From: Candidatus Latescibacterota bacterium
GTDB lineage: Bacteria; Latescibacterota; CBDEFO01
Direction of reading: 5' to 3'
DNA: 64,000 nt
NCBI GenBank assembly: GCA_965237525.1
Contig: CBDEFO010000008.1
Location: 320,001-384,000, forward strand
Shown: piece after piece, positions 1-20,859 of the stretch
How the letters are laid out: each line of letters begins with the position of its first letter
Position numbering within the stretch: position 1 is the first letter of the stretch
Notes under the pieces: generated by a model
The model's database searches: none
What the model was told of the DNA's origin: nothing
Seen by the model: the letters and a program-made list of their open reading frames with translations, nothing else
Position numbers and translations under genes: made by a program

Positions 1-1
1 C

Positions 2-556
2 CGCGAGGGCTTCCTGGGCAATACCGGCGTTCTGCTGGCCGGCCCTGTAGAAATCGACGAGACGTTCATCGGCGGGCGGGAGAAGAACAAGCGCGCGGAC
101 AAGAAGCTCCACGCGGGTCGGGGTACCGTCGGCAAGGCCGTGGTCGCTGGCGTCAAGGACCGGGAAACGAAGGAGGTCCGCGCCGAGGTCGTTCAGGGAA
201 CCGACAGGGACACCCTCCAGGGCTTCGTCGAGGACCACGTAGAACCGGACGCCCGGAAGTTCACTGACGAGCACCACGCCTACCAGGACCTCAGGAACCA
301 CTCGACCTGCAAGCATGGCGTGGGGCATTGGGTCAACGGCCAGGCCCACACCAACGGTCTGGAGAGCTTCTGGTCGATGTTCAAGCGTGGCTACCATGGC
401 ACCTTCCATCGGATGTCCGTCAAGCACCTGCACCGCTACGTCAACGAGTTCGCCGGGCGCCACAACATCCGCGACAGGGACACCTTGGAGCAGATGTGCC
501 TGCTGGCTACCGGGCTGGTTGGGAAGCGGCTGCGATACCGGGATTTGGTGGCGTGA
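2..556 (+). CDS. IS1595-family (ISXO2-like) DDE transposase, 5'-truncated by window
   Basis: Motifs VEIDETFIGG, FTDE, HTNGLESFWSMFKRGYHG, YVNEF; near-identical to 16476..17414. Confidence 0.95.
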   Translation, partial: REGFLGNTGVLLAGPVEIDETFIGGREKNKRADKKLHAGRGTVGKAVVAGVKDRETKEVRAEVVQGTDRDTLQGFVEDHVEPDARKFTDEHHAYQDLRNHSTCKHGVGHWVNGQAHTNGLESFWSMFKRGYHGTFHRMSVKHLHRYVNEFAGRHNIRDRDTLEQMCLLATGLVGKRLRYRDLVA

Positions 557-1407
557 TGGAAACAGCACCGGCGCTTCCAAGGTCAAACCGATCAAACTCC
601 CCCTTCAGATATCCCGGCGGGAAGTTCTACGCCCGCAGAATGATACTTGAGGAGATACCTCAGCACGAGTTCTATTGTGAGCCGTTTGCCGGGGGAGGGA
701 GTGTGTTTTTCGCTAAAGAAGCGGCGAAGGCATCAGTACTCAACGATCTAGATATCGAGGTCATAAACACGCTCCGGCATATACGAGATCGAGTAGAAGA
801 CTTGATTGGCCTACTTGACGGAATTCGGGCTACGAAGAAAAACCATGCCTACTACAAGGGCTATAAGCCAACTGACGGCCTTTCTCGTGCTGTCAGGTGG
901 TTCTACCTCAACCGTACGTCCTACAGTGGAATCATGCGCCGTGAGAACTGCTATTGGGGTTACGGCCGCAAATATTCGATGTGTCCCAAGAACTGGCCTC
1001 CACACCTGCGAACAGTGTCCGACAAGCTGCAAGGCGTGGAGCTGACCACATTGGACTTTGAGATGGTTATTGATGCTTTACCTGATGGGGCTTTTGCATT
1101 TGTGGATCCGCCCTATTACGCATCCGACCAACAGAAGTTCTATGTCTGTCCGTTCACCATGGAAGACCATGACCGTTTACGCCAGTGCCTGAAGAGAAAT
1201 GCAGATCGGGTCATGTTTCTACTAACCTATGACGACCACCCGGACCTGCGGCCTATGTACGAATGGGTCAAGTCTGTCAACAACAGGCAGTGGAACTACA
1301 CGATCAACCGCACGGATGACCAACGCAACGGCACCAAGCTAAAAGACGGATTTCGAGGGTCTAGAAAAAAAGGGAGTGAGTTGTTCATCAGGAACTACCA
1401 TGTCTGA
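556..1407 (+). CDS. Dam/D12-class N6-adenine DNA methyltransferase (type II RM)
   Basis: YPGGK, EPFAGGGSV (motif I), DPPY (motif IV); ATG at 556 overlaps the transposase stop (TGATG). Confidence 0.92.
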   Translation: METAPALPRSNRSNSPFRYPGGKFYARRMILEEIPQHEFYCEPFAGGGSVFFAKEAAKASVLNDLDIEVINTLRHIRDRVEDLIGLLDGIRATKKNHAYYKGYKPTDGLSRAVRWFYLNRTSYSGIMRRENCYWGYGRKYSMCPKNWPPHLRTVSDKLQGVELTTLDFEMVIDALPDGAFAFVDPPYYASDQQKFYVCPFTMEDHDRLRQCLKRNADRVMFLLTYDDHPDLRPMYEWVKSVNNRQWNYTINRTDDQRNGTKLKDGFRGSRKKGSELFIRNYHV

Positions 1408-2125
1408 TACCGATGAAGTCTATCGGGTTTACAACGGTATCACCGAGTATTGCGAGACATACAATATTCCACGTGAAAACCTGCTCGACATACTGGAGGA
1501 TCAGAAGGTTGTTCCGATGATTCGAGGAAAGGCTACGGAATACATTGGGGCAGCTGTGCTCAAGGAGGCCCTTGATCCGAGAGACTGGATCGTGGAAAAA
1601 CTTAACCTGAATCCTCAGCTTGGAACCCATGACGAGGACGTGAGCATTACGTACAAGCGGACAGGTTGTCGACTGAAAGCAGAGACAAAGAACGCTGTGC
1701 GGGATCACTTCCGGCTCCGTGCGAAATCGATCAAGGTTCCGCACTTTAACGTCAAGTGCCACAAATCACGGAGCCACTTGAAGAAGGCGAGTACGACAAA
1801 CGACAGATATGAGGTCGGAGACTTCGATGTTTTGCTGTGCAATGCGTCCAATGCTGTCTTTCAGGGTAAGACGTTGGACCGAGGCCTACCGCTTATAGAC
1901 GACAACGAGGCGATTGAGTGGCTTAGAGGCTTCTACGATGTGGAGACGGAAGACCAACTCCGCCGAGCAGCATACGACGACTGGAGGTTGTGCTTGCCGG
2001 TCACAATCGCCTCTCCGGACGGAACCCTGCCACGCACCCCGTCGGTGTTGATGGAGAACGACCCAAACTGGTTCGGACTTGATCGCGTTGCGGCCAACCT
2101 TCGCACACTTATCAGTGGGGGATGA
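1400..2125 (+). CDS. putative type II restriction endonuclease (PD-(D/E)XK)
   Basis: RGKATE...DEDVS...AETK pattern; overlaps the MTase 3' end. Confidence 0.7.
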   Translation: MSDTDEVYRVYNGITEYCETYNIPRENLLDILEDQKVVPMIRGKATEYIGAAVLKEALDPRDWIVEKLNLNPQLGTHDEDVSITYKRTGCRLKAETKNAVRDHFRLRAKSIKVPHFNVKCHKSRSHLKKASTTNDRYEVGDFDVLLCNASNAVFQGKTLDRGLPLIDDNEAIEWLRGFYDVETEDQLRRAAYDDWRLCLPVTIASPDGTLPRTPSVLMENDPNWFGLDRVAANLRTLISGG

Positions 2126-2129
2126 CGAT

Positions 2130-2303
2130 ATGAAGAAACCCAACGACGAGTCCCACTCCGTCCGTGGCCCCGGTCGCCCGGAAAAGCAGGACATTAAGTT
2201 GCCGGCCAGCGCGGAGGAGATCGCCCGTAACATCTTCACCAACGCGAAACCGGTGGACCCGTCAAAGCGCGGCAAGACTACCGACGGCCAGAAAGGAGAT
2301 TGA
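2130..2303 (+). CDS. small conserved IS1595-associated protein (57 aa)
   Basis: Near-identical to 19217..19387 (GPGRPEKQDIKLPASAEEIARNIF). Confidence 0.8.
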   Translation: MKKPNDESHSVRGPGRPEKQDIKLPASAEEIARNIFTNAKPVDPSKRGKTTDGQKGD

Positions 2304-2421
2304 GAAGGTTGACCAATGGCCTATCGCAATGCGGGCGGGCTGATACCGAGTGACAACGGTTGGCGTGATTTGACGGATGATGCGATAGCTAGTAAATTGT
2401 TGTAAAGTCCAGAGTTACGGT

Positions 2422-2461
2422 ACAAAAAAAGTGCCCGTCGGTTCGGAGCCGACTGGCACTT
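2422..2461 (-). terminator. hairpin with A-run, terminator-like on the minus strand
   Basis: AAAAAAAGTGCCCGTCGGTTCGGAGCCGACTGGCACTT imperfect inverted repeat. Confidence 0.45.
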
Positions 2462-2499
2462 AAATACAAAAACACTCTTTACCAAGAGGAGGTATTTGT

Positions 2500-2811
2500 A
2501 TGCCTCAACGTACGACTCCACAACCAGCGTGTCAAGCGTCATTTGTTGAATTCCTGGAAGGGTTCTCGGAAGGGTTCTCACGATCCCTCAAACCTTTCCA
2601 GGAATTAGCGGAAGTGGCCTCCCAAACTCCCGTTTTCAAGTTGTTCCGGGACGCGACTAGATCAATGGCGCAATTTCCTATCCCTGATTTACGGCCGACA
2701 GTAGAAGCGCTCTCGCAGACCACCACTGTGCAAGATATTCTTATTGGCTATCTGAGAAGTCCTACGATAGAGGGCACCGGGATTCAGTCATTCAGAGCCG
2801 CCATCTGGTAA
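2500..2811 (+). CDS. hypothetical cargo protein
   Basis: GAGGAGG RBS upstream; stop codon lies inside the right TIR. Confidence 0.5.
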   Translation: MPQRTTPQPACQASFVEFLEGFSEGFSRSLKPFQELAEVASQTPVFKLFRDATRSMAQFPIPDLRPTVEALSQTTTVQDILIGYLRSPTIEGTGIQSFRAAIW

Positions 2812-2829
2812 CTTTGGTATATAATCCCC
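2807..2829. repeat. right terminal inverted repeat of element 1
   Basis: 19/23 match to 20505..20527. Confidence 0.85.
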
Positions 2830-2831
2830 TA

Positions 2832-5327
2832 ATGTTCAAAGTGACCTCTATATGCGTTGGTGTGATGGTGGTTTTCCTGGCGTCGAGAGTTATCGCGCTA
2901 CCTCCCGGGCGGCATCCAGTTCTCCTCTACGAAGAGGTTGATATTCCGGTCATCAAAGATAGGATCGAAAGGGAGCCTTACGCCTCGTGGTGGGCCTGGA
3001 TAAAGGGAAAGTCCGATGAAGCTCTCTCCAAATCGGCAGGCCAGTTGGGGGATGAAAGGCAAAAGACGAGGTTTGCAAAGGCATTGGCGTTCGCATATAT
3101 GATTACACAGGATTCGACCTACGCTCAGAAAGCAATAGATGTTATGAAGGCTGTGAAGTTCCCTCCCGGAGGGGGTAACCTGGGTGAGCCTCATGCCGAA
3201 GCAGAGGGGGCGGCTAACTATTTTGAGGCCTACGATATGCTGTATAATTATCTCAGAGGTGATTTGGACTCTGATGGGACTATAAGGGCGATAGCCGCAG
3301 AAGAGGCCGACAGGCTCTACGGAGGGCTTTTTGTACAGTTGGGATTCTTCAAGATACCCCTTTGGCAGACTCCTCACAAGGACAACTGGCATATCAGGGC
3401 TTACTCAGCACTCGGAATGGGGGCGATCGTTCTGTCGGATTACGTAGGGGAAAGTTCGACTCCCGACCAGTGGGACGAAAGGGCCAGATCAGTGGTTATG
3501 GAGACTATGGATTATCAGATAGATGCAAATGGAGGATACGCCGAGGGACCCTTCTACAGCCAATATGCAGCGGATATATATATGCCCTATCTGTTGGCTT
3601 TGAAGAGATTCTCAGGCGAGGACCTTTTGAATGATTCCAAGATCCACTCTATGCACGATTGGTCTTTGAATATAAGGTTGCCAGATGGATCGAGGCCAAA
3701 CGTGGACGATGCGCATCTGTCGTATTTCTTCGGGAATTACCTATCCTCAGTTTATCCAGACGGAGCTGTGCACGCCTGGGACTGGGGTAACGCAAGAGAT
3801 CTATATGCCGCCGACTTCTACAGGGTTGACGCAGTGGCTCTGTATGACGACAGCGTCCAGCCTCGGGAGCCTAATCTCAACGCGACGGTTTTTATGCCAG
3901 AAGCTGGCGACGCCGTATTCAGAAGCGACTGGTCGAGGGACGCTATATATATGCTCTTAAGGGGAGAGCACGGAAAGGCAAGGACTAACGGTCTTTCACA
4001 CGAGCACCCCGACGGCACCAGCTTTATTATCTTCGCCTACGGAGAGATGTTAGCTCTGGACGCTGGATATATCGAGTTCGCACAGCACCACAAGGTCAAC
4101 AAAGCGCTTAACCACAACCTCATCTTGGTCGATGGGAAGGGGCCTCCTCTAATCGAATTGTTGGGTAACGTTATAGGAGCAGGAGTGGATGCGACTATCA
4201 GTAACTTCTTCAGCACGAACTTCCTAGACTACGCGGAAGTGAAGGCAAGGTACCAGAATACGAATTTCGTAAGGAGCGTGTTCTTTGCGGATAATAAGTA
4301 CTTCGTGATAATAGACGATATTGATGCTGGGGCGGTGCATGCGTACGAATGGCTTCTGCACGGCAACGGAGGCGGCACGAGTGGTGGGGAATTTGAATCC
4401 AGGGAGAAAGGCGTAAAATGGAGGATCAACGATGTGGAGCTTATAGCCTACATAGCAGCTCCTAACAATGCAAAGATGATCCTAGAGGAGGGAGGCACAG
4501 CGGGTGTTCACTCCTTCAGCTACAGGCAGGAGTTGACGCATACAGTCTTGAAGGCGAGGGCTTCGGGAGAAGATTTGAAATTTCTGAGCGTGCTCTATCC
4601 TAAAGCTGTAGATAGCGATGAGCCTGAGATCATCGCGCTGGCCGCAGAAGGAGGAAGAGGAGTAAAGGTGAATGAAGATGCGATAGCGTACAAAAATAGG
4701 GACTCGGCGGGTTTAAGCTTACATAGTTTAAGTGCAGACAACGATACCGTTCGGACAGATGGTGAAGCACTATTTGTTAAGTCGTCCCCGCGTCTGCAGC
4801 CCGCATTTGAACTGTTCGACAGAAACTCCTTCCCAGCGTGGCTCGGCTGGGGATCTGTAGGTAGATTCAGCGTTCTGGGCGGAAGATTCCTGAAAGTGGG
4901 ATCTGACAGTCTATTTAGTTCATCGGAGAAGATAAGACTTGCGCTCGATGCGAATGAGCTGGAATCCTCATTAGAGGGATATTTTAGCGGTCAAAATCCC
5001 TTCAGTCTAAAGTTGTGGACAACGCTGGAACCAGATTCAGTCTATGTAAATGACGCGCCCCTGGACTTTTCCTTCTCTCCCAAAAGTGACATCCTGACCT
5101 TAAATCTTCAGGGACAGGGAACTCTAAAGATGGTCCTTATACCTGTCAGGAGCGATTTCAACAGAGACCGTGATGTCGGTCTCGGAGATTTTGTACTATT
5201 CCTCGATGTCTTCGGATCATCCGCCGGGACAACGAATTATAGTCCTATATTTGATTTAGACGAAGACGGTGAAGTCGGTTTGAGCGATTTTGTGATCTTT
5301 CTGGACGATTTTGGCAGCAGTTTATGA
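2832..5327 (+). CDS. secreted heparinase II/III-like polysaccharide lyase with C-terminal dockerin-like EF-hand repeats
   Basis: Signal peptide MFKVTSICVG..., NWH, GGYAEGPFY, HEHPD..SF, HNLILVDG motifs; C-terminal DFNRDRDVGLGDF / DLDEDGEVGLSDF. Confidence 0.82.
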   Translation: MFKVTSICVGVMVVFLASRVIALPPGRHPVLLYEEVDIPVIKDRIEREPYASWWAWIKGKSDEALSKSAGQLGDERQKTRFAKALAFAYMITQDSTYAQKAIDVMKAVKFPPGGGNLGEPHAEAEGAANYFEAYDMLYNYLRGDLDSDGTIRAIAAEEADRLYGGLFVQLGFFKIPLWQTPHKDNWHIRAYSALGMGAIVLSDYVGESSTPDQWDERARSVVMETMDYQIDANGGYAEGPFYSQYAADIYMPYLLALKRFSGEDLLNDSKIHSMHDWSLNIRLPDGSRPNVDDAHLSYFFGNYLSSVYPDGAVHAWDWGNARDLYAADFYRVDAVALYDDSVQPREPNLNATVFMPEAGDAVFRSDWSRDAIYMLLRGEHGKARTNGLSHEHPDGTSFIIFAYGEMLALDAGYIEFAQHHKVNKALNHNLILVDGKGPPLIELLGNVIGAGVDATISNFFSTNFLDYAEVKARYQNTNFVRSVFFADNKYFVIIDDIDAGAVHAYEWLLHGNGGGTSGGEFESREKGVKWRINDVELIAYIAAPNNAKMILEEGGTAGVHSFSYRQELTHTVLKARASGEDLKFLSVLYPKAVDSDEPEIIALAAEGGRGVKVNEDAIAYKNRDSAGLSLHSLSADNDTVRTDGEALFVKSSPRLQPAFELFDRNSFPAWLGWGSVGRFSVLGGRFLKVGSDSLFSSSEKIRLALDANELESSLEGYFSGQNPFSLKLWTTLEPDSVYVNDAPLDFSFSPKSDILTLNLQGQGTLKMVLIPVRSDFNRDRDVGLGDFVLFLDVFGSSAGTTNYSPIFDLDEDGEVGLSDFVIFLDDFGSSL

Positions 5328-5469
5328 GTAACAGATGAACGGGGATGAGAGAAAGTGTCCCAATCTGCTGGACAGACAAGAATGTCTGTATTACCTGCGA
5401 AATTGTTTCGCTGCCTCCCGAGTGAGTAGGGGTCGCGATGACAGTATAGTAGGCTCGCAACGAAATTGC

Positions 5470-5925
5470 TTAGCTTCGACTCTTAGTCATTGCGAGAGGC
5501 TTATGACCCGAAGATAGGGCCTTGGGTATCCAGGGTTTGAGCCCATCTAAGCGGATCTGCACTATATGTTTTTCCCATTCGGACTTCTGCTCGGTAAAGA
5601 GGCTTGACCTGATAGGAGTGTCGGAAAAGATCGTTTTCCAATCGGTATTTGCGATCAGAGATTCTATCTCGTCAGGGGAATATCCTGAAGCGTAAAGCCC
5701 TCCCATCACGCTGCCCATGCTTGACCCAGCGATCATATCTATGGTTACATTCTCCCTATCAAGCGCTCTAAGCACAGCTATCTGAGCGCTGCCCCTTGCT
5801 TCGCCTCCACTTAATGTCAGACCGATTTGGGGTCTCTTGGATCCGGACTCGCCTGCGACCTGCCGTGTAAGAAGAGCGACTGGAAGGAGAAGTAATGTGA
5901 TAATTAGAGCTATCATCGTGTGCAT
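5470..5925 (-). pseudogene. truncated patatin-like phospholipase (N-terminal part only)
   Basis: LSGGEARG and GSSMG motifs; ORF ends before the DGG motif, next to a GTCATTGCGAG-type palindromic repeat. Confidence 0.7.
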
Positions 5926-6432
5926 TGTGTGCCTCGGCGATTTCAAAGTACTCGCAGACAAATATATGACAAACTCAGAGATCAGTTAAGCCGCAAGATT
6001 CGTAATCTTTCTGTATCTTTGTATTTGTACTTTTACAGACTGAATTTCGATTCTTGACAAATCACAAAAAAACATTATCACTGCACCCATAGAAGTTGTC
6101 ATCTGTTCCTAAGTCGCTGTTATCGTATAAAGAGGGTCCACATCAGTCATTTCCAGAGAGGACAGATCTGTCCTGCTTTTGATCTTCACTCTATACTGTC
6201 TGCAAGATAGCTTTGGTGGCCCTTCGGTTCGCTCTGGGCTTCGGCTGATAAGCAGACTTTTTACTTCTACTTTCAGTCATAAAAAGAGTCAAATGCCCGA
6301 ACCAGACTCATCCTACTGTTTACTTTCTATTGACTTATAGGAGATCCTTTTCTATATTGTTATTGATACGTATTGAAGCAGAAAAAACTTTAGGGCATAT
6401 TCAAATTAAATTTACAAGGAGGGGAATGGGCA

Positions 6433-7596
6433 ATGATTACGCCTGTTATAATGCCAAAGTTGGGATTGACAATGGAGAAAGGGTCAGTGGCAGAGTGGCG
6501 CGCAAAGGAGGGGGAAAGAATAGCAAAGGGCGAGCCGCTCTTTGTGGCGACGACCGATAAGGCGGATATGGAGATAGAGGCCCCGGCATCTGGTATTTTG
6601 AGGAAGATCCTCGTTGACATGGACGTGGATGTGCCGGTGACCGAGCATATCGCGATCATAGCGGACGAAGACGACGATATAAGCGAATATTTGAAGGGAG
6701 CAGAGCCCGCGAAAGTTGAACAGACAAAAGAGGTCGCAGAGCCCGCACAGACGATAGTCCAAGAGGAAAAGGCTCCCGCCAAGAGCCCAGGAGGAAGGAT
6801 AATTGCGTCTCCTGCGGCAAAGAGGATCGCGAAGGAAAGGGGAATAGATCTTTCCCTCATAGAAGGCACAGGCCCCGGAGGAAGGATTACTACTGAAGAC
6901 GTGGAGAGATTCTCCCCCGAAGAAGCAGTAAAGATAAAGGAGGAACTAGTCCCCTTAACAAGAATAGAGGGTGTAGCAGCTGAAAGATTAACGGAGGCAT
7001 CGAGGGATATTCCTCACATCAATCTCTTTATGGACGTAAATTGCGAAAGCATAGTCCAGATAAGAGTGGATCTGAGCCAAAAGGGGATCTCTGCCTCCTA
7101 CAACGACATTATCGTCAAAGCCCTCGCCTCCACCCTGAGGGAGTTCCCAAGGGTCAATTCGATCCTGGAGGGGGTAAATATCAGGTTGCTCCCCGACATA
7201 AATATAGGGATCGCCACAGCTACAGATCAGGGTCTAATGGTTCCGGTCTTAAAAAATGCGGGCAGGATGGACATTGCTGGGATAGCACAAGAGACCGCCA
7301 AGTTGACAGAGTCGGCAAGGAGCGGGACATTGAGCCTAGACGACATAAGCGGAGGCACATTTACGATCACCAATCTGGGGATGTACGGCGTCAGCAGGTT
7401 TACGGCTATCATAAATCCCCCTCAGGTGGCTATCCTATCTGTGGGGGCTATAGTAAAAAGGGTGGTCGTAGTTGACGATAACACTTTCAAGATACAGCCT
7501 ACGATGACTCTGAACTTAGTCTGCGATCACAGGGTAATAGACGGAGCCTTAGGGGCTAACTTTTTGAAGAGGTTGAAAGAAACTTTAGAGCAGTAG
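6433..7596 (+). CDS. 2-oxo-acid dehydrogenase E2 (dihydrolipoamide acyltransferase)
   Basis: Lipoyl TDKA, E3-binding ASPAAKRIA..GTGPGGRI, catalytic DHRVIDG. Confidence 0.95.
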   Translation: MITPVIMPKLGLTMEKGSVAEWRAKEGERIAKGEPLFVATTDKADMEIEAPASGILRKILVDMDVDVPVTEHIAIIADEDDDISEYLKGAEPAKVEQTKEVAEPAQTIVQEEKAPAKSPGGRIIASPAAKRIAKERGIDLSLIEGTGPGGRITTEDVERFSPEEAVKIKEELVPLTRIEGVAAERLTEASRDIPHINLFMDVNCESIVQIRVDLSQKGISASYNDIIVKALASTLREFPRVNSILEGVNIRLLPDINIGIATATDQGLMVPVLKNAGRMDIAGIAQETAKLTESARSGTLSLDDISGGTFTITNLGMYGVSRFTAIINPPQVAILSVGAIVKRVVVVDDNTFKIQPTMTLNLVCDHRVIDGALGANFLKRLKETLEQ

Positions 7597-7663
7597 ACAG
7601 TAGAACAGACATTCTTGTCTGTTCTGTTTAGACAGAATATCAGACAGGAATGTCTGACCTACC
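7592..7663. repeat. REP-like palindromic repeat with CAGTAGA units
   Basis: ACAGACATTCTTGTCTGT...CAGACAGGAATGTCTGACCTAC; related copy at about 5370-5395. Confidence 0.55.
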
Positions 7664-7682
7664 CTGCTGTATGGGGCAGGAG

Positions 7683-9146: not shown

Positions 9147-9147
9147 A

Positions 9148-9198
9148 TGTAGGGGCTGGGTTTCCCAGCCATCGGGCGAGGTAACCTTCCCCCTACAA
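9148..9198. repeat. GTAG-type REP palindrome
   Basis: TGTAGGGGCTGGGTTTCCCAGCC...CCCCTACA; related GTAGGGGTGAACCC at about 10616. Confidence 0.55.
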
Positions 9199-9212
9199 AC
9201 TGTCTAGTAAGT

Positions 9213-10592: not shown

Positions 10593-10815
10593 TTTTTGCG
10601 CTATATTTTTGACAGGTAGGGGTGAACCCGTATATTCGCCCAACATGGACAAAGTTACCCTGCAAGATCAATGTCGGTACAGGGTTTCCCTTCCCACGCG
10701 CGAGGCGCCGTGGCCGCTTTGTCAGGGAGGATGAGATGCAGCGAGCAAAGCCGGAAGTGCCGTAGGCCGTACAGACACGGTAGACAGATTTACATTCAGG
10801 AGATGACAGATCCTA

Positions 10816-11910: not shown

Positions 11911-13019
11911 AGTGGCGGGACCACTCCGTGCAACATCAGGCATTTGTACCCTTCATATTGCCCATTATCCTCTTGCTATTTTCCTCCTCCCCTTACGCTG
12001 GAATCTCCCACCAATCCAAAGGAAAGATCGGATTTGAGTACGATGACAACACCTTTGAGGATATAAGCGGCGGAGTAGGGGGCATTCTCCTAAGAACCTA
12101 CATAAACAGCAAATTACAGATTCTCACCCTCAAAAGAGCATCTGGCTCTGTGAACTATCAGACAGGTGCGAAAAGATATATTTCGCCTCCCAATAGAAGT
12201 GGGCTTTCGGCTGGCAATCTGATAGTCAACGATCTGGATCTGAAGTTACGCCTGGGACTCCCTTTAAATGTGAACGCATTGGGAGGGGCGAGGATCAAGG
12301 ATAAAAAGGTCTTCGGAGAAAGGGGAGAAAGGCTCTCCCCCGATGACGGCTATCTTTGGGGAACTGTATCCTTTTCGCTCAGCTTTCCTATCCTTAGGCC
12401 ACTCGTAGGGACACTTACCTACGGCCGATCACTCCTGGACTTCGACAGCTTCGACGACTTCGACCGAAACGGGCACCAGTTTGATATCGGCATCGCATAC
12501 AGATTGTCCAGAAAGTTCAAAGCCGGAGTACACTTCAAAAGGAAGGAACTCGACTTTGAGGGATCCGTCGTCCTGCCTCCCGAATCGGAGAACCCTTCAC
12601 AAAGGAAGAGAGAGGACACGTTCAGCCAGGTAGGGGTCACATGCCAGGCGTACGTCCTCAAATCTCTCATCGACTTTGCATACTCCTATCAAAAAAACTC
12701 ATCTATAAGCTTCGGAAGCTCTTATAGGAGCAACGTCTTTAGAGTTATCATCGTCAAGCGTGTACCCCTCGGCTCGACCGTTCAGGTCTATGCCAGGATA
12801 CAGAACAGACGCTACATGGACAAGATAAAGCTCCCGGATGAAGCGGAGCCGCTCACAGACGAGGACGATCAGGACTCCCTCCAGATCAGAATATCCAAAT
12901 CCCTTACCCCAAGATGGGACATCCAGACTCAATACAGAATCAACAGAGACGAATCCTCCCGAAAGACCGAGTTCTACACTAAGGGACTCTACTCTGTGTC
13001 CCTGAACTATTCCTTCTGA
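11907..13019 (+). CDS. putative outer-membrane beta-barrel protein
   Basis: Signal peptide, alternating aromatic strands, C-terminal YSVSLNYSF. Confidence 0.7.
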   Translation: MKWRDHSVQHQAFVPFILPIILLLFSSSPYAGISHQSKGKIGFEYDDNTFEDISGGVGGILLRTYINSKLQILTLKRASGSVNYQTGAKRYISPPNRSGLSAGNLIVNDLDLKLRLGLPLNVNALGGARIKDKKVFGERGERLSPDDGYLWGTVSFSLSFPILRPLVGTLTYGRSLLDFDSFDDFDRNGHQFDIGIAYRLSRKFKAGVHFKRKELDFEGSVVLPPESENPSQRKREDTFSQVGVTCQAYVLKSLIDFAYSYQKNSSISFGSSYRSNVFRVIIVKRVPLGSTVQVYARIQNRRYMDKIKLPDEAEPLTDEDDQDSLQIRISKSLTPRWDIQTQYRINRDESSRKTEFYTKGLYSVSLNYSF

Positions 13020-13229
13020 AGAGCGTCATTTTTATCAGAAATCTGATACTCGACCCTCAGATTTTTGAGGTTTGTCCGACTGTCAAAGCTTCTTTCGCCG
13101 CGGCTGCTTACCTGCTATTTCGCGCGACAGTGAAGTAATCTCCCTTATCTGAATGACTGATGGCGTCACGACGGGGGGTAAGGGATAGGATAAGACTTTT
13201 TACGATCACGGAATCGTCGTCTTAGTGTG

Positions 13230-13244
13230 TGGCACGAATGTTGC
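13230..13244 (+). promoter_or_regulatory. sigma54 -24/-12 promoter
   Basis: TGGCAC-GAATG-TTGC matches the consensus; lies upstream of the serpin genes and near an NtrC-family gene. Confidence 0.8.
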
Positions 13245-13512
13245 GTTTCGTTTTGTGCAGAGCAGCGACAATTCAAACTTTAAATCATATAAGAAGAGGT
13301 TAAAGACTGTGAAATTATGGATGCTGATAAAAGATATGAGCCTAATTATGCTTGTATCAGGGCTTATGCTGTATGTTGTCATCCAGATCGCCACTGTTCT
13401 GTTCTAACTTCAAGGAGCTGCCAGATGAAAAGGATGCTACTGTGTTTTGCGTGGATACTCGTTATTTGTGCACCGGCTCTTTCACTTGCTCGTTTAATGA
13501 GGAGGTGACATC

Positions 13513-14781
13513 ATGTGCAAGATATTAAATTTCAGCTTCGTACTCTTCTTCTGCATCGGATTTACCCAATGCGGAGGGCATAATCCCCTCTCACCGATTT
13601 TGAATGAGGCGCGCGACTTAACTCCAGCCGAAAAGCGTCTGGTCGAATCGGACAACAGATTCGGCATCAAACTCTTCAAGGCAATTGTCAAAGAAGAAGA
13701 CTCCAAGGTGACATTTGCACCAGCACCCATAGAGGATAGAAACGTCTTTATGTCTCCATTGAGCGTCTCTATGGCGCTGGGGATGACATACAACGGAGCA
13801 GATGGGAGCACAGGGGAAGCTATGCGCGAAACCCTCGAACTCGCAGGTATGACAATTCAGGAGATAAACGAGTCCTACAAAGGTCTGATAGAACTGTTAG
13901 CCAACCTAGATCCGAAGGTGAGATTTGATCTTGCAAATTCGATCTGGTATCGTCAGGGATACTCCTTTGAGGAGGCGTTCATGGATCTGAACAAGGCATA
14001 TTTCGACGCCCAGGTGAGAGAGCTGGACTTCAGTGATGCGAGTGCCCTGGATATAATCAACGGATGGGTCGATGACAATACCAACGGGAAAATCGATGAG
14101 ATCGTGGACAGGATCGATGCTCGTACGGTGATGTTTCTGATTAATGCAATCTATTTTAAGGGAACATGGACCTACGAGTTCGATGAAGAACTCACGAGAG
14201 ACGATCTCTTTTTACCGCCCGACGGTTCCGAGAAATCGTGCAGGATGATGATGCAGGTGGGCAACTTCCAATATTTTGAAAATTCCGATTTTCAAGCCGT
14301 CGATCTTCCCTACGGCGACGGCTATTTCAGCATGGTCATCTTCCTTCCACGCACGGAGAAGGACATGAATTTCCTGATTGAAGAATTTAATCAGGAGAAC
14401 TGGGATCTTTGGATACACAGCTTTTCCGAACATGATGGGACTCTGCAATTGCCCAAGTTTACTCTCGAATATGAATTGGAACTGAACAATGTGTTGCAGG
14501 CGTTGGGGATGGGAATTGCTTTCTCGGATCAGGCTGATTTTACCAAGATGTACAGACCAGGTGGTCTATTCATCAGCAAGGTTAAGCATAAAACATTTGT
14601 AGATGTAGACGAACAGGGCACAGAAGCCGCGGCAGTCACTTCTGTGGAGATACGTGAGACGGCAATTGGTCCCTCCGGTTTTTCAATGCGAATTGACAGA
14701 CCATTTGTATTTGCGATTCGAGAAAATCGCACCGGCACGATATTGTTTATGGGCAGAATCGTTGCACCGACCTTGGGTTAA
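13513..14781 (+). CDS. serpin family protease inhibitor (lipoprotein) 1
   Basis: SPLSVSMAL, NAIYFKGTW, hinge EQGTEAAAVT, DRPFVF. Confidence 0.96.
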   Translation: MCKILNFSFVLFFCIGFTQCGGHNPLSPILNEARDLTPAEKRLVESDNRFGIKLFKAIVKEEDSKVTFAPAPIEDRNVFMSPLSVSMALGMTYNGADGSTGEAMRETLELAGMTIQEINESYKGLIELLANLDPKVRFDLANSIWYRQGYSFEEAFMDLNKAYFDAQVRELDFSDASALDIINGWVDDNTNGKIDEIVDRIDARTVMFLINAIYFKGTWTYEFDEELTRDDLFLPPDGSEKSCRMMMQVGNFQYFENSDFQAVDLPYGDGYFSMVIFLPRTEKDMNFLIEEFNQENWDLWIHSFSEHDGTLQLPKFTLEYELELNNVLQALGMGIAFSDQADFTKMYRPGGLFISKVKHKTFVDVDEQGTEAAAVTSVEIRETAIGPSGFSMRIDRPFVFAIRENRTGTILFMGRIVAPTLG

Positions 14782-14800
14782 TAGGAGGAGAGATACTACC

Positions 14801-16039
14801 ATGTCCAAGATATTAAACTTCATCTTTGTGCTCCTGCTCTGCGTTGGATTTATGCAATGTGGAGAGGATAATATCGTCTCACCGATTATGAGTGAGTCGC
14901 GCGACTTAACCGCGGCTGAGAAGCGCCTGGTCGAATCGGACAACAGATTCGGACTCAAGCTTTTCAAGGAGATTATCAGAGGCGAGGAGGACAAGAACGT
15001 CTTCATCTCACCTTTGGGTGTCTCAATGGCGTTGGGGATGACCTACAACGGCGCGAATGGGAGCACAGAGGAGGCTATGCGGGAGGCACTCCAACTCGGA
15101 GATCTGACGATTCAGGAGATAAACGAGTCCTACAAAGGGCTGATAGAACTGTTAGCCAACCTCGATCCGAAGGTGAGATTTGATCTTGCAAACTCGATCT
15201 GGTATCGTCAGGGATTCCCCGTTGAGGAGGAGTTCATCAAACTGAACAAGGCATATTTCGACGCTCAGGTAAGAGGATTGGATTTTGACGATCCGAACGC
15301 GTCGGACATAATCAACGAGTGGGTCGATGCGAGTACTGACAGCAAGATTGAAGAGATCGTGCCGAAGGAGATCGATCCCAGTACGGTGATGTATCTTATC
15401 AACGCAATCTATTTCAAGGGCAGTTGGACCTACGAGTTCGATGAGAGCCTGACGAAAGATGATCTCTTTAGTTTGCCCGACGGTTCACAAAAGTCTTGCA
15501 AGATGATGAAGCAGGAAGGAGGCTTTCAATATTTTGAAAATTCTGATTTTCAAGCAATCGATCTGCCCTACGGCGGCGGCGACTTCAGCATGACCGTTTT
15601 TCTCCCGCGCGCAGGAAAGGACGTAGATTTCCTGATTGAAGAATTCAGTCAGGAGAACTGGGATCTTTGGATAAACAGTTTCTCCGAACATGAATTGACT
15701 CTGCAATTACCCAAGTTTACCCTCGAATATGACCTGACTCTGAACGATGTCCTGAAGGCGTTGGGGATGGAGATCGCCTTCGACCGCGACCGAGCCGATT
15801 TTACCAAGATGTATACAGGGCCAAGTCGTTTGTACATCAGTAAGGTGAAGCGTAAGACGTTCGTAAAGGTAAACGAAGAGGGCACGGAGGCTGCTGCGGT
15901 TACTGCCGTGGATATGCAGATCGATTCGGTGCTCCCTTCGATGCGTGTCGATAGACCGTTCGTATTTGTGATTCGGGAGAACCGCTCAGGGACGATACTC
16001 TTTGTGGGCAAGATCGTCGAACCGATTCTGGAGTCATAG
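14801..16039 (+). CDS. serpin family protease inhibitor (lipoprotein) 2
   Basis: Paralog of serpin 1; AGGAGGAG RBS; hinge EEGTEAAAVT. Confidence 0.96.
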   Translation: MSKILNFIFVLLLCVGFMQCGEDNIVSPIMSESRDLTAAEKRLVESDNRFGLKLFKEIIRGEEDKNVFISPLGVSMALGMTYNGANGSTEEAMREALQLGDLTIQEINESYKGLIELLANLDPKVRFDLANSIWYRQGFPVEEEFIKLNKAYFDAQVRGLDFDDPNASDIINEWVDASTDSKIEEIVPKEIDPSTVMYLINAIYFKGSWTYEFDESLTKDDLFSLPDGSQKSCKMMKQEGGFQYFENSDFQAIDLPYGGGDFSMTVFLPRAGKDVDFLIEEFSQENWDLWINSFSEHELTLQLPKFTLEYDLTLNDVLKALGMEIAFDRDRADFTKMYTGPSRLYISKVKRKTFVKVNEEGTEAAAVTAVDMQIDSVLPSMRVDRPFVFVIRENRSGTILFVGKIVEPILES

Positions 16040-16081
16040 ACCAAATCTACAACATTCTTTCAAAACCACAAGGAGGACAAA

Positions 16082-16390
16082 ATGAAAAGTGTCGCGATGA
16101 GTCTGATGATAGTCCTTTGCACCATTACTGCAGTAAATGCGGAGCTAATTTTTAAGCAAGATTTTGAGAACGGTCTTGCTGATTGGACCCCGGGCTTCGA
16201 TCTTCCTGACGATCCCAACAATCCCGGCAATATAGTAGCATGGGAGGTCGTCCCCTCAGACGAGCAGGTATTCGCCGGCGATCGGTCGCTCAAGCTCTTC
16301 ATAGACGGTCGGCAGGACGACGGTACGGTCTGGCTCGCCGGGGAATTTCCCTCCTACCCGACACAGAACACGGACGTCACAGTAAATTTT
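16082..16390 (+). pseudogene. secreted protein, 5' part, interrupted by element 2
   Basis: Signal peptide; joins in frame with 20536..20859 when the element and one TSD copy are removed. Confidence 0.88.
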
Positions 16391-16421
16391 GGGAATTATA
16401 TCGAAAAGTGCCCATCTCCTC

Positions 16422-16450
16422 TTGACTTCCCCCGGTTTAGGCACTATATT
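16422..16450 (+). promoter_or_regulatory. sigma70 promoter of the transposase-RM operon
   Basis: TTGACT-N17-TATATT, followed by GAGGAG RBS. Confidence 0.7.
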
Positions 16451-16475
16451 GTAAGTAGTCAAGAGGAGATGTTAA

Positions 16476-17414
16476 ATGAGCCAACCTGCTCCAGGACGTT
16501 CCCACCGCAAAGGCGTTACCCTTCGAGAGTTGTTCCGCCGGTTCCCCGATGACAAGGCCGCCGAGGCGTGGTTCATGGAGACCCGGTGGCCGGACGGGCC
16601 GGTTTGCCACCATTGCGGTTCGACCAGCGTGCAGACCGGGGCCGCCCACAAGACCATGCCATTGCGGTGCCGCGATTGCCGAAAGAGATTCAGCGTTCGC
16701 ACCGGGACGGTCATGGAAAGCAGCAAGCTTGGATTTCAGGTCTGGGCCATTGCCACCTACCTGCTGACGACAAATCTCAAAGGCATCTCCAGCATGAAGC
16801 TCCACCGTGAGCTGGGCATCACCCAGAGAAGCGCCTGGCACTTGGCGCACAGAATTCGGGCAACCTTCGAGGCGCAGCCTGACAAGGCTTCTTTCGCTGG
16901 CCCCGTCGAGATCGACGAGACGTTCATCGGCGGGAGGGAGAAGAACAAGCACTCCGACAAGAAGCTCCACGCAGGCCGGGGCACCGTCGGAAAGGCCGTG
17001 GTCGCTGGAGTTAAGGACCGGTTGACGAAGGAAGTCCGCGCCGAGGTCGTTCAGGGAACCGACAGGGAAACCCTCCTTGGCTTCGTCGAGGACCACGTAG
17101 AGCCGGACGCCCGGAAGTTCACCGACGAGCACCATGCCTACCAAGACCTCAGAAACCACTCGACGTGCAAGCATGGCGTGGGGCATTGGGTGGACGGACA
17201 GGCGCACACCAACGGCCTGGAGAGCTTCTGGTCGATGTTCAAGCGTGGCTACCATGGCACCTTCCATCGTATGTCATTCAAGCACCTGCACCGCTACGTC
17301 AACGAGTTCGCCGGGCGGCACAACGTCCGCGACAGCGACACCCTGGAGCAGATGTGCCTGTTGGCTACCGGGCTGGTTGGGAAGCGGCTTCGATACCGGG
17401 ATCTTATCTCGTGA
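16476..17414 (+). CDS. IS1595-family transposase (intact)
   Basis: Zn-ribbon CHHC...CRDC, HTH region, EIDET, TDE, NGLESFW. Confidence 0.96.
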   Translation: MSQPAPGRSHRKGVTLRELFRRFPDDKAAEAWFMETRWPDGPVCHHCGSTSVQTGAAHKTMPLRCRDCRKRFSVRTGTVMESSKLGFQVWAIATYLLTTNLKGISSMKLHRELGITQRSAWHLAHRIRATFEAQPDKASFAGPVEIDETFIGGREKNKHSDKKLHAGRGTVGKAVVAGVKDRLTKEVRAEVVQGTDRETLLGFVEDHVEPDARKFTDEHHAYQDLRNHSTCKHGVGHWVDGQAHTNGLESFWSMFKRGYHGTFHRMSFKHLHRYVNEFAGRHNVRDSDTLEQMCLLATGLVGKRLRYRDLIS

Positions 17415-18451
17415 CCACGACCGCAAGTAGGCCCCCGCGCGGATCGCAGAGATCCGCCTCGGCCGCGAAGAGGACTACATACTCCAGGGCCGGAGTTACG
17501 GTGCACTTCGCTCCGGCTGAATCTCTGTACGATGAATGGCCCACCCCCACATGCATCATATCCGACGGGCCTTACGGGCTGAGTGGTTATCCTGGAGACT
17601 TGACCACAATCGACGGACTCGTGGACTGGTATCGCCCGCACGTAGAAGCGTGGTCTGAACATGCAACGCCGGAAACCTCCCTGTGGCTCTGGAACTCGGA
17701 GATAGGGTGGGCGACCATTCATCCCCTTCTCGCAGAGCACGGATGGGAATATCGGTGCTGCCATATCTGGGACAAGGGATTGGGGCATATTGCCGGCAAC
17801 GTCAACACCCAGACGCTTCGCAAGTTCCCGGTGACAACGGAAGTGTGCGCCCATTACGTCAAGGCCCCGAAGTTCGGAGGGATGTCGGCACAAGAATGGC
17901 TGCGCCACGAATGGCGACGCTCCGGACTCCCTCTCAGACTGGCCAACGAGGCTTGTGGCGTCGCCAATGCGGCCACTCGCAAGTACTTGACTGCGGATCA
18001 CCTGTGGTACTTCCCGCCCCCCAAAGCGTTCCAAGGGCTTTGCTCTTTCGCTAACGAGCACGGAGACCCTGCGGGCCGTCCCTACTACAGCATTGATGGA
18101 CGACGGTCCATGACTCCAAATAAGTGGGCTCGTTGCCGCGCAAAATTTCACTGCTCCGTGGGGATCACCAATGTCTGGCGCACCCCCCAGGTGGCGGGTG
18201 CTGAGCGCGTCAACGGCACGCGCCAATCCATGAGATGGAAGTACATGAGTCTCCACGGCAGCCAGAAACCTCTGTCTCTGGTCGAGATCGCAATTGAGGC
18301 CAGCACCGACCCCGGAGACGTAGTGTGGGAACCCTTTGGAGGACTCTGCCCTGCGGCGGTATGTGCGGTCCGCTTGAGTCGGTTCGGGTGTAGCGCCGAG
18401 ATCGTCAGAGAGTTCTACAAGGCGGCCTGCGAGAGACTCAAGAATGCCTGA
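17411..18451 (+). CDS. beta-class N4/N6 DNA methyltransferase
   Basis: N-terminal ISDGPY (motif IV variant), HGSQKP, GDVVWEPFGG (motif I); GTG overlaps the transposase TGA. Confidence 0.85.
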   Translation: MTTTASRPPRGSQRSASAAKRTTYSRAGVTVHFAPAESLYDEWPTPTCIISDGPYGLSGYPGDLTTIDGLVDWYRPHVEAWSEHATPETSLWLWNSEIGWATIHPLLAEHGWEYRCCHIWDKGLGHIAGNVNTQTLRKFPVTTEVCAHYVKAPKFGGMSAQEWLRHEWRRSGLPLRLANEACGVANAATRKYLTADHLWYFPPPKAFQGLCSFANEHGDPAGRPYYSIDGRRSMTPNKWARCRAKFHCSVGITNVWRTPQVAGAERVNGTRQSMRWKYMSLHGSQKPLSLVEIAIEASTDPGDVVWEPFGGLCPAAVCAVRLSRFGCSAEIVREFYKAACERLKNA

Positions 18452-19217
18452 TCCGCCGACACCCCCGTCAATAGTTGAACCCACCAATTGGGAGCATTTC
18501 GATCTATACCGGCGGGTCAAGAATGCACTGTATGCGGTCCCCGATCGGTTCACCACTCCGACGAACATAGAAGGGCTACTCGTCACAGACATTTTCACCC
18601 TCAACGCAGTCCTGAGTGCATCCATCGAGGAGTCCGTTGTAAACACCCTGAATGCCCTTCGTCCTGTTTGGGACCATGACTCCAACTACCAGACCTACTC
18701 CTTTGTCCGTCAACCACAAACCTTCCCGGACGTTGTTCTGCGGACTGTCGACAACGGCGCAAAGCCCTTGATGGGAATCGAACTGAAGGGGTGGTATCTG
18801 CTCGCACGCGAAGGCCACCCCACCTACAGATTCGCGGTAACCGAGAAAGCATGTAGCCCTTGGGATCTACTCGTAGTCATTCCTTGGGTCCTGTCCAATG
18901 TCCTGGCCGGATCACCTGTTCTTTTCCGGCCATTCATTCGGCCGGCCGTGTTCTGCGCACAGAAGAGGAACCATTATTGGCAACATGAGCGCCAGGCAGC
19001 CGGCGGGAACACGGGAATTAACATTCCCTCTGAAGTTCATCCGTATCCCACGAAGAGAGATCATATCTCAGACAAGCCACAAAGTGACTCCGGTGGAAAC
19101 TTCGGGAGACTGGCGCGATACGGGATCATGGATGAGTACATAAAGAGCATGCTGGATGATAAGGTTCGTGGTGTGTCTGTCCGTAAATGGCTGGAATTCT
19201 TCAAGAAAGAGGCATAA
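18444..19217 (+). CDS. putative type II restriction endonuclease (PD-(D/E)XK)
   Basis: FPDVVL...GIELKGW catalytic pattern; overlaps the MTase. Confidence 0.75.
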   Translation: MPDPPTPPSIVEPTNWEHFDLYRRVKNALYAVPDRFTTPTNIEGLLVTDIFTLNAVLSASIEESVVNTLNALRPVWDHDSNYQTYSFVRQPQTFPDVVLRTVDNGAKPLMGIELKGWYLLAREGHPTYRFAVTEKACSPWDLLVVIPWVLSNVLAGSPVLFRPFIRPAVFCAQKRNHYWQHERQAAGGNTGINIPSEVHPYPTKRDHISDKPQSDSGGNFGRLARYGIMDEYIKSMLDDKVRGVSVRKWLEFFKKEA

Positions 19218-19387
19218 TGGGAAAATCCAACGACGATTCCCACTCCGTCCGTGGCCCCGGCCGCCCGGAAAAGCAGGACATCAAGTTGCCGGCCAGCGCG
19301 GAGGAGATCGCCCGTAACATCTTCGACAACGCCAAGCCGGTAGATCCGTCGAAGCGGCAAACCAACCAGAACAAAGAGAGCAAGTAA
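19217..19387 (+). CDS. small conserved IS1595-associated protein (56 aa)
   Basis: Near-identical to 2130..2303; TAATG coupling at both ends. Confidence 0.8.
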   Translation: MGKSNDDSHSVRGPGRPEKQDIKLPASAEEIARNIFDNAKPVDPSKRQTNQNKESK

Positions 19388-19704
19388 TGGCAGTATCGAT
19401 TTACGATTTAATCCGACAAGCCATTCTCAACAAAGAGCAAGTCTTTGCTACCTACGACGGACATCGGCGGGAAATGTGCCCTCATGTGATTGGAACAAAA
19501 AATGGCAGAGAACAGGCTCTTTTTTACCAGTTCGGAGGAAGCAGTAGATCGGGGCTGTCAATTGACCCTCGAAAAAACTGGCGGTGCATTCCCATCAACG
19601 GCCTAAGCGCCGTATCAGTGCAGAAGGGAGAATGGCACACAGGGCCTAATCATACTCGTCCACAAACGTGCGTAGACGACATTGACGTCGAAGTCGCCCT
19701 TTAG
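19387..19704 (+). CDS. stand-alone WYL-like protein
   Basis: IRQAILNKEQVFATYDGHRREMCPHVIG resembles a WYL-domain start. Confidence 0.55.
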   Translation: MAVSIYDLIRQAILNKEQVFATYDGHRREMCPHVIGTKNGREQALFYQFGGSSRSGLSIDPRKNWRCIPINGLSAVSVQKGEWHTGPNHTRPQTCVDDIDVEVAL

Positions 19705-19917
19705 CTAAGGCGTACTCTTGCTGCGATTCTTAAAGTCGCCGTATTCCTTAGCCCTTTCTTCCGCATTTTGCCCCGTAAATCGAGCCATATAGCAGTTCCC
19801 TTCGTCCTCATAGTCAATCGTCTCTGCGATCCATTCTCCTGGGTAAAACTTGCACTCCTGAACTTCGTAAACTAATGAGCTCTCCATTTGAGGAGCTTCT
19901 GGGGCAGTCGTAGTCAT
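19705..19917 (-). CDS. small hypothetical cargo protein (70 aa)
   Basis: CAGGAGG RBS before ATG at 19917. Confidence 0.55.
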   Translation of the reverse strand: MTTTAPEAPQMESSLVYEVQECKFYPGEWIAETIDYEDEGNCYMARFTGQNAEERAKEYGDFKNRSKSTP

Positions 19918-19934
19918 TGAGTTATCCTCCTGCT

Positions 19935-19957
19935 GGGAACTTTGGTAGATAATCCCT
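19935..19957. repeat. internal copy of the IS1595 right end
   Basis: GGGAACTTTGGTAGATAATCCCT, 20/23 match to the element-1 right TIR. Confidence 0.8.
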
Positions 19958-20042
19958 TTTTTTACCGGTCGCCGTCCGAACCTGCCGATAGCCGCATGAA
20001 TGAAGACCAAGTGATGAATGATTTTCTATGGGGAGTTCAATC

Positions 20043-20213
20043 ATGAATCAGCACAAACCCGATAGCCGTCCCACAGTAGAGATTCCGCCGCAGGACCACC
20101 AGCCGAGCAAGGCGGAGCTGGAGGAAGAGATCAAGATTGACGCTACGCCGGAGGAGGTGGCACGGCAGCTGGTGCAGCCAGTGGTGGCAGTGGAGCGGGA
20201 GGAACCGAAATGA
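20043..20213 (+). CDS. divergent homolog of the small IS1595-associated protein
   Basis: IKIDATPEEVARQLV vs IKLPASAEEIARNIF; similar length (56 aa). Confidence 0.6.
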   Translation: MNQHKPDSRPTVEIPPQDHQPSKAELEEEIKIDATPEEVARQLVQPVVAVEREEPK

Positions 20214-20434
20214 TTGTCAGCCTCGAAAGTGTAAGCTACCAGCAAACCGAGGCGAAGGTGGTATGGGCTTTCCAGTCTCATGACAGCGAAATGTTTCGGC
20301 TATCTGTTCAAGTAAGACTTGCCGATCTTCCTCCAGCGCAGCTACACGAGAATACAATTCGCGTAGCGCAGAAAGTGCTGATTCTTCGCTTGGAGGAGAT
20401 TCTGTCAAAGCTTCAGGAACAGCCGGAAGAGTAG
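20210..20434 (+). CDS. small hypothetical cargo protein
   Basis: ATGA overlap with the preceding ORF. Confidence 0.5.
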   Translation: MIVSLESVSYQQTEAKVVWAFQSHDSEMFRLSVQVRLADLPPAQLHENTIRVAQKVLILRLEEILSKLQEQPEE

Positions 20435-20535
20435 TTGCGCTCATGCTATAATAGATAGGAAATTTCAGCACGTCTGGCAAGGTGGCGCCTGACTACCCGC
20501 CCGTGGGCACTTTGCGATATAATCCCCTAAATTTT

Positions 20536-20859
20536 CGGTTCTGGAGTCCGTTTAAGGGCGGCTTTAATAATTTAGCCTCTGTGGTCGGCTATATCGGGCC
20601 GAAAGAGCCGAGGGCTGAGAGAGATTTTCAACTCCTGGCTCCAGTTGTCGAGGTGGGCGAATGGGATCTGCTTTCCTTTTCATTCTCAGTGCCGCCCAAC
20701 AGGCCAGAAAGCGTCTGGGTCGCCGTGGGATTTACGGTCACGTGGGAGTCCGAGCAGACTTATTACATAGATGATGTAGTTGTGGAAGTCAGCGGTTCTC
20801 AACCGACGGCTGTGGAGGCGATCTCCTGGGGACAGATTAAGAGTAAGAGCCGACGGTAG
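20536..20859 (+). pseudogene. secreted protein, 3' part, with VEAISWGQIK C-terminal motif
   Basis: In-frame continuation of 16082..16390 (...VTVNF|RFWSP...). Confidence 0.88.

Follow-up and report, generated by a model that had tools for sequence, protein, structure and literature searches.

The stretch of DNA analysed here, hereafter the window, comprises 64,000 nucleotides (C8:320001-384000) of the 4.58 Mb, 8-contig genome of a Candidatus Latescibacterota bacterium (G000). It carries two transposons of the IS1595 insertion sequence (IS) family, elements 1 and 2, each of which holds a different predicted restriction-modification (RM) pair between its transposase gene and a conserved small open reading frame (ORF). 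Positions are in window numbering unless they bear a contig prefix (Table 1). Elements with ends like those of element 1 are called type A (reference L080) and those with ends like those of element 2 type B (reference L148); a second genome from the same genus, G001, was used for comparison.

The transposases carry the IS1595 DDE domain (PF12762, E 8.8e-37; NF033547, above cut-off), with the catalytic residues D147, D217 and E249 kept across 29 aligned sequences, and an N-terminal zinc ribbon (PF12760, E 8.1e-8) with four invariant cysteines. The inverted repeats begin with GG and are accompanied by 8-bp target site duplications (TSDs): element 1 is bounded by 25-bp inverted ends and flanked on both sides by TAATGTTC, and element 2 is flanked by TAAATTTT (16383-16390 on the left, 20528-20535 on the right). 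The flanks of both insertion sites are 91-97% identical between G000 and G001, where both sites are empty and the host gene split by element 2 is a single open frame. Because of these empty sites and the intact gene, we conclude that the two elements each inserted as whole units, with their passengers within the ends; G001 is without the entire 3.3-kb and 4.1-kb units. A preliminary description of the window, made from its sequence, had called both elements IS1595 cargo transposons, and this holds. Each is single-copy in G000, and G001 has no close copy (best E 1.8e-11).

Table 1. Features of elements 1 and 2 and of three further cargo-bearing elements in the same genome.
Feature	Position	Strand	Description
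Element 1	1..2829; in full C8:319514-322829	+	IS1595 cargo transposon, type A ends, 3316 bp; first 487 bp precede the window
Transposase of element 1, 3' part	2..556	+	317 aa in full, open frame
M1	553..1407	+	D12/Dam-like adenine methyltransferase (PF02086, E 1.5e-27); start overlaps transposase stop
R1	1400..2125	+	Predicted PD-(D/E)xK restriction endonuclease (PADLOC REase_II, E 7.5e-24)
Small ORF type A, element 1	2130..2303	+	57 aa; unnamed IS1595-associated protein family
103-aa ORF	2500..2811	+	Second variable region of element 1; ORF only, no family match
Right terminal inverted repeat, element 1	2805..2829	-	Type A
Target duplication, element 1	right copy 2830..2837; left copy C8:319506-319513	+	8 bp; empty site in G001
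Host gene, 5' part	16082..16390	+	Split by element 2; final 8 bases are the left target duplication
Element 2	16391..20527	+	Hybrid IS1595 transposon, 4137 bp; type B outer ends, type A inner parts
Sigma70-like promoter, element 2 left end	16422..16450	+	TTGACT-17-TATATT; 10/12, consensus match only
Transposase of element 2	16476..17414	+	Chimeric, 312 aa; N-terminal (zinc-ribbon) half of type B, DDE half of type A
Recombination breakpoint, element 2	16895..16913	+	Conserved GPVEIDET codons
M2	17411..18451	+	Beta-class N6/N4 methyltransferase, variant DGPY motif (PF01555, E 6.8e-12)
R2	18444..19217	+	Predicted EcoRV-like PD-(D/E)xK restriction endonuclease (PADLOC REase_II, E 3.6e-8)
Small ORF type A, element 2	19217..19387	+	56 aa; 92% DNA identity to the element 1 copy over 134 bp
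105-aa ORF	19387..19704	+	Stand-alone, coupled to small ORF; WYL-like as a lead only
70-aa ORF	19705..19917	-	ORF only, no family match
Internal type A right-end remnant	19933..19957	-	Terminal base altered; T-rich stretch after it
Small ORF type B	20043..20213	+	56 aa; second member of the small-protein family, aligns with type A
74-aa ORF, type B right arm	20210..20434	+	97% to L160; no significant family match
Right terminal inverted repeat, element 2	20503..20527	-	Type B
Host gene, 3' part, with right target duplication	20528..20859	+	Duplication is 20528-20535
X	C8:1581351-1586203		Second IS1595 family, G000; cargo: split type IIG RM
Y	about C8:1190800-1195127		Second IS1595 family, G000; cargo: Dcm, Vsr and EcoRII-like
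Z	about C8:1201062-1204203		Second IS1595 family, G000; cargo: beta-methyltransferase and EcoO109I-like

The cargo genes of elements 1 and 2 gave no match to one another by blastn or tblastx, and the claim that unrelated RM pairs, one with a Dam-like and the other with a beta-class methyltransferase, sit between shared anchors was therefore upheld. M1-R1 and M2-R2 are predicted type II RM systems, in which a methyltransferase with S-adenosylmethionine-binding and catalytic motifs is linked to a separate nuclease with a modelled restriction-enzyme fold. M1 matched PADLOC MTase_II (E 7.8e-72) and has the motifs EPFAGG and DPPY, and among relatives of M2 EPFGGLC is found in 22/22 and DGPY in 16/22. 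The methyltransferase and nuclease genes adjoin in other genomes as well, at 6/6 loci for M1-R1 and 22/22 for M2-R2. Neither nuclease belongs to a Pfam family, and a search of PDB sequences with both profiles gave nothing meaningful. In R1, D80, E95 and K97 are invariant across 71 sequences; the best VIA fold for its model (pLDDT 85) is the PD-(D/E)xK nuclease I-Ssp6803I (Z 11.2, root-mean-square deviation 3.5, 139 residues aligned), which was also the best Foldseek hit (E 0.03) where no match reached E<=0.001. In R2 the motif P95-D96, E113-x-K115 is kept among relatives, and its model (pLDDT 94) matched EcoRV in Foldseek (E 2e-4, with a low TM-score of 0.3) and SwaI, NlaIV and EcoRV in VIA (Z 7.4, 6.0 and 5.4). 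The nuclease folds proposed for both proteins were thus recovered in predicted models. A search of 167 other genomes of the phylum with this query did not recover R1. Going by what is generally known of RM systems, the cargo of these elements may be kept for phage defence or through addiction.

The anchors on either side of these cargos are shared to different degrees. The transposases had been described as near-identical; this is true of the 3' half of the gene, with 91% DNA identity (468/513 nt), and not of the whole (81% DNA, 77% protein), as the 5' half has only 55-74 matches per 100-nt window. Near-identity of the type A small ORFs stood, with 8 synonymous and 4 non-synonymous changes over 47 codons. 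Similarity does drop abruptly near both genes, at limits slightly other than those first placed at the transposase stop and the small ORF start: it ends three codons before the stop, the final three codons of the element 2 transposase not being type A, and restarts a few bases inside the small ORF. Gene starts and stops overlap as originally described (GTGATG, GTGA, 8-nt overlaps between the methyltransferase and nuclease genes, and TAATG twice), and a near-consensus sigma70 site does lie inside the left end of element 2, a region with 4 promoter-like sites against 1.5 +/- 1.1 in shuffled sequence.

A metagenome-type assembly with 4% contamination could in principle have joined two strains or copies, so that element 2 or the shared anchors would be an assembly chimera. 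Differences at 8-9% of sites in the shared stretches, most of them synonymous, mean that these are not a collapsed repeat; the two TSD copies of each element also match, its site is cleanly empty in G001, and the pattern recurs in independent genomes. We consider such an artefact very improbable.

Element 2 is itself a composite. When L080 and L148 serve as references, 76/105 of the informative sites in its transposase are type B up to 16895 and 91/95 are type A from 16913 onward, a switch reached by 0/2000 permutations and one that separates the end-binding half of the protein from its DDE half. Over 507 bp, the right arm shares 97% identity with the right end of a type B element in another genome (G101), and its small ORF type B is 98% identical to that of L160 and 60% to that of L148, both of which have type B ends. 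Between this arm and the type A small ORF lies an internal end (19933-19957) that matches the right end of element 1 at 22/25 positions and element 2's own at 19/25, the likeness to element 1 running for about 45 bp. Type B outer ends and arm around type A inner parts make element 2 a hybrid of two lineages. A second variable slot had been placed between the small ORF and the right end; a variable region is present there, although in element 2 it is not one block, being divided by the internal type A right end and the second small ORF homolog. The 105-aa ORF in this region had no match in a Pfam scan; it has ESM Atlas features of 0.94-0.96, with one cluster carrying PF13280 on 10% of its members. 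L220, which has another mosaic transposase, was tested as a candidate type B parent for element 2 and discarded, since it has a third end type and a mosaic of its own.

Replacement of cargo on a conserved backbone is seen in other elements too. L080 is 91% identical to element 1 over the end and transposase (1041 bp) and again 91% over the small ORF, and between the same anchors it holds a third, unrelated pair, a methyltransferase and an EcoRI-like nuclease. An interruption by another IS kept its right end from being found; other IS elements break the right arm (L080:9286-11190), and related IS sequence also lies on the left. A cleaner case than that of elements 1 and 2 is provided by X, Y and Z (loci labelled L002 and L003), which carry three unrelated cargos on backbones whose first 1012-1027 bp are 97% identical and whose last ~240 bp are 89-94% identical. 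Conversely, the cargos of Y and of another G000 element, L004b, are 78-80% identical over ~2.7 kb, and the transposases of these two share only two short matches of 30 and 50 bp.

The cassette families of elements 1 and 2 occupy the same slot on other backbones in another phylum. M1-R1 lies between a transposase and a small ORF in 2/6 other loci, L253 and L254, both found among relatives of a Dehalococcoidia genome; ends and a TSD are present in L254, whose transposase is 52% identical to that of element 2. M2-R2 is found in this slot in 1/22 other loci, L259. The backbones that share these families are only 52-63% identical.

Several elements bear traces of nested insertion. In X and Z, a fragment of a foreign transposase lies right behind the element's own transposase stop (E 5e-9 and 3e-5), and at the same junction Y has a few matching codons, judged by eye. 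X further contains an internal end like that of another element (19/24) and two small ORFs; in L160 an IS1595-like end is found immediately upstream of small ORF type B; and the small ORF of L080 joins a type B-like N-terminus to a type A core.

The small ORF belongs to a large family. Its profile drew 537 clusters (50% identity) at E<=0.001, and the best 150 of these are 33-147 aa long, except for one repeat protein of 1429 aa; no transposase fusion was found among the same 150. It has no Pfam or PHROGs family, only unnamed Atlas clusters matched it, and none was found in viral contigs. Relative to the L080 copy, 9 and 11 synonymous changes stand against 1 non-synonymous change (9/1 for the element 1 copy); judging by this substitution pattern, the small ORF is conserved as a protein and not as a DNA site. 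In one subtype the protein begins with RGRP, a sequence that may recall an AT-hook. In the cargo-poor elements L099, L100, L110, L047, L085 and L088 the small ORF directly follows the transposase, which makes it likely to be a backbone gene. Among 11 loci found through the small ORF alone, 8 have a piece of an IS1595 transposase or an end-like sequence nearby. At L143:4600-4830 and L144:8040-8260 a small ORF precedes an IS1595-like right end, and no transposase was found within 13 kb; these units are possibly non-autonomous elements. At L004:15196-15270, a different short peptide (PKELDRIVDQVL-like) lies right after the transposase and is fused in frame to a methyltransferase, possibly representing a second small ORF family.

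How commonly the slot is filled with RM genes differs between genomes. G000 has 20 transposase loci, including 12 long elements delimited by inverted ends, 7 of them with a perfect TSD. All 12 carry a DNA methyltransferase and 10/12 a recognised nuclease domain, several being frameshifted. Of the remaining loci, two are cargo-free elements of 843 bp, three are remnants that lie next to methyltransferase genes, and three show no RM genes. Outside G000 we scanned 27 distinct elements, with duplicate copies dropped (113/146 picked ORFs, plus two hand-picked), and found RM genes in 10/27; the others hold KilA-N, BRO, IrrE, Panacea or unknown genes, or nothing. In a second batch from the same phylum (18 elements, 48/53 ORFs scanned), RM genes were clear in 1/18. 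A further 14 loci lacking an end pair had no RM genes in the slot; the one exception, L151, has a type III pair that lies on the opposite strand. The slot is a general one, in which RM genes are the commonest identifiable load and, in G000, the rule. The term defence platform used in the preliminary description is too narrow, RM genes being present in all 12 long elements of this genome but in a minority of those elsewhere.

Seven more IS1595 elements with methyltransferase or RM cargo were noticed in G000, at C8:390000-410000, C3:254411-258929, C7:557700-560300, C7:175400-179300, C4:59000-61400 and C4:173900-177300; their cargos include MvaI-like, EcoRII-like, HNH-fusion and type IIG-like enzymes, several of them frameshifted. 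Within the window, element 1 sits where two host ORFs adjoin at a stop/start-like TAATG, and its duplication appears to preserve the stop on the left and the ATG on the right. Two tandem genes labelled by eye as serpin-like are found directly left of element 2 (13513-16039). The tetranucleotide CTAG occurs in G000 at 0.27 of expectation and several 6-bp palindromes at 0.55-0.7, an avoidance that cannot be tied to either enzyme. Another genome of the phylum, G027, has about 30 copies of a more distant IS1595 element, many of which read with a single stop.

Our reading, to which we give a probability of roughly 70%, is that IS1595 units insert with an RM pair behind the transposase and that these pairs are swapped when one element inserts within or next to another and recombination follows through their conserved transposase and small ORF sequences. 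The transposase, the small ORF and the ends would form the backbone, with the cargo between the two genes and presumably read from the left-end promoter through translational coupling. The AT-rich stretch ahead of the small ORF may draw further IS1595 insertions; the target duplications seen are mostly AT-rich. Two transposase genes brought together in this way would recombine or convert, or be joined by a deletion, such that the old cargo is lost and the outer ends and inner cargo stay. As proposed at the outset, RM pairs do differ repeatedly at a fixed slot between the transposase and the small ORF, and traces of recombination through the anchors can be seen. What needs changing is the relation of the two elements, which are not sister copies with one exchanged cassette: element 2 is a hybrid, the partners are other IS1595 elements and the breakpoints are variable.

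The history of element 2 can be told in two ways. In the simplest, a type A element with M2-R2 would have entered a type B element, and a single crossover at 16895-16913 would have fused both. In the other, M2-R2 would be native to type B and the type A patches would have arrived later, in two events. In L259, M2-R2 lies on a type-B-like backbone that is colinear with element 2 (66% over 2.7 kb), which calls the one-event order into question; this backbone, together with the last three transposase codons, suggests that M2-R2 may already have been present in a type B element when the type A patches arrived. We regard the two orders as about equally likely, and in both of them the event is recombination between IS1595 elements.

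Besides L259, several observations weigh against exchange by nesting and recombination. The 9% divergence between the shared stretches implies that the exchange is old and that elements 1 and 2 were probably not direct partners. In a delimited panel of 39 elements, the small ORF was detected in 13/39 at E<=0.05 and transposase remnants were found by profile in 2/39, so that scars are a minority; a scan of the panel for internal ends returned 3, against 0, 3 and 0 in three shuffles, and alone gives no excess. Neither an intact intermediate with one element nested in another nor a purely type B parent for element 2 was found, and L148 is only ~78% identical to element 2 in the 5' half. Lastly, 4/6 M1-R1 loci and 21/22 M2-R2 loci have no IS1595 element nearby, which means that exchange among elements is not the whole story and that capture from, or release into, ordinary sites occurs too.

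These last counts favour an account in which illegitimate recombination brought a chromosomal RM pair into each element independently; the anchors would be plain backbone genes, the slot the only place that tolerates insertion, and exchange between elements incidental. The small ORF directly behind the transposase in cargo-poor elements and the mixed cargo of elements elsewhere fit this account equally. It leaves unexplained, however, the chimeric transposase, the internal ends and the foreign transposase tails in X and Z, as well as the occurrence of shared cassette families at the same slot of backbones with only 52-63% identity. We consider independent capture unlikely as the general explanation.

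The tight coupling of the cargo to both anchors in elements 1 and 2, and the fact that three type A elements differ only in the slot, recall instead an integron-like system that would swap RM modules site-specifically at the transposase stop and the small ORF start. Integrons hold exchangeable genes that are read from a promoter in their fixed part. Unlike integrons, the elements have no integrase and no fixed attachment site: scans with Pfam and other families identified no site-specific recombinase among the ORFs of either element, the cargo ends have no common sequence, and the small ORF, as noted above, is not conserved as a DNA site. The breakpoints differ from element to element and fall inside the anchor genes, which argues for nested insertion and homologous recombination rather than a site-specific cassette system. 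The latter has scarcely any claim left, and we have rejected it along with the assembly chimera and a slot reserved for RM genes.

The ends of the elements begin with GGGAATTAT or GGGGATTAT and fit 'ggnnatTAT', which we take to be the ISNwi end consensus. Together with the N-terminal zinc ribbon and the 8-bp TSD this points, as a lead only, to the ISNwi group of IS1595 (group names and family features in PMC8101967).

IS1595 transporter ISs (tIS) were reportedly treated by Siguier, Gagnevin and Chandler in 2009. Examples of such elements with passengers are MTnSag1/tISSag10 and tISCpe8 (PMC5704250). In common with these, the elements reported here have an IS1595 DDE transposase, inverted ends of ~25 bp, an 8-bp duplication and passengers within the ends. 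They differ in that the passengers are RM genes and not lincosamide resistance, with many RM types per slot, a conserved small second gene, and hybrid and nested forms. Units in which inverted repeats enclose RM genes, and which have an 8-bp duplication and an empty site, were reported by Furuta, Abe and Kobayashi in 2010; one Neisseria unit there held a likely inactive COG3677 transposase, and allelic substitution of RM genes was also described (PMC2853133). Unlike those units, elements 1 and 2 have intact transposases, substitution takes place inside a mobile element, and several families are involved in one genome. No description of RM pairs being exchanged inside IS1595 elements, or of the small ORF, came up in the literature searched; subscription papers or supplements could contain one. 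IS1595 passengers were already known; the contribution of this locus is the evidence on mechanism and the density of RM-bearing IS1595 elements in a single genome.

The mobility of RM systems is well known, but the vehicle, and the replacement of one pair by another, are seldom caught. Both are visible here, in whole-unit insertions with empty sites, in a three-way replacement of cargo on 97%-identical backbones and in recombination scars. Recombination between IS1595 elements likely explains shuffling of RM genes between bacteria, and it offers a testable answer to how passengers change in IS1595 transporter ISs. The analysis also points to a large unnamed family of small proteins and supplies many uncharacterised predicted restriction enzymes. 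As at least 12 elements are present in one lineage with no close copy in G001, the methylation and phage-restriction profile of this bacterium may have been rewritten quickly. More speculatively, and we think this improbable as it stands, the IS1595 clade may constitute a cross-phylum exchange for RM genes, in which self-targeted insertion guided by the ~55-aa protein, through its RGRP DNA-binding-type motif, and nested recombination would reassort end-binding domains, catalytic domains and RM cassettes. If that were true, within a short time a single genome could acquire a dozen new RM specificities.

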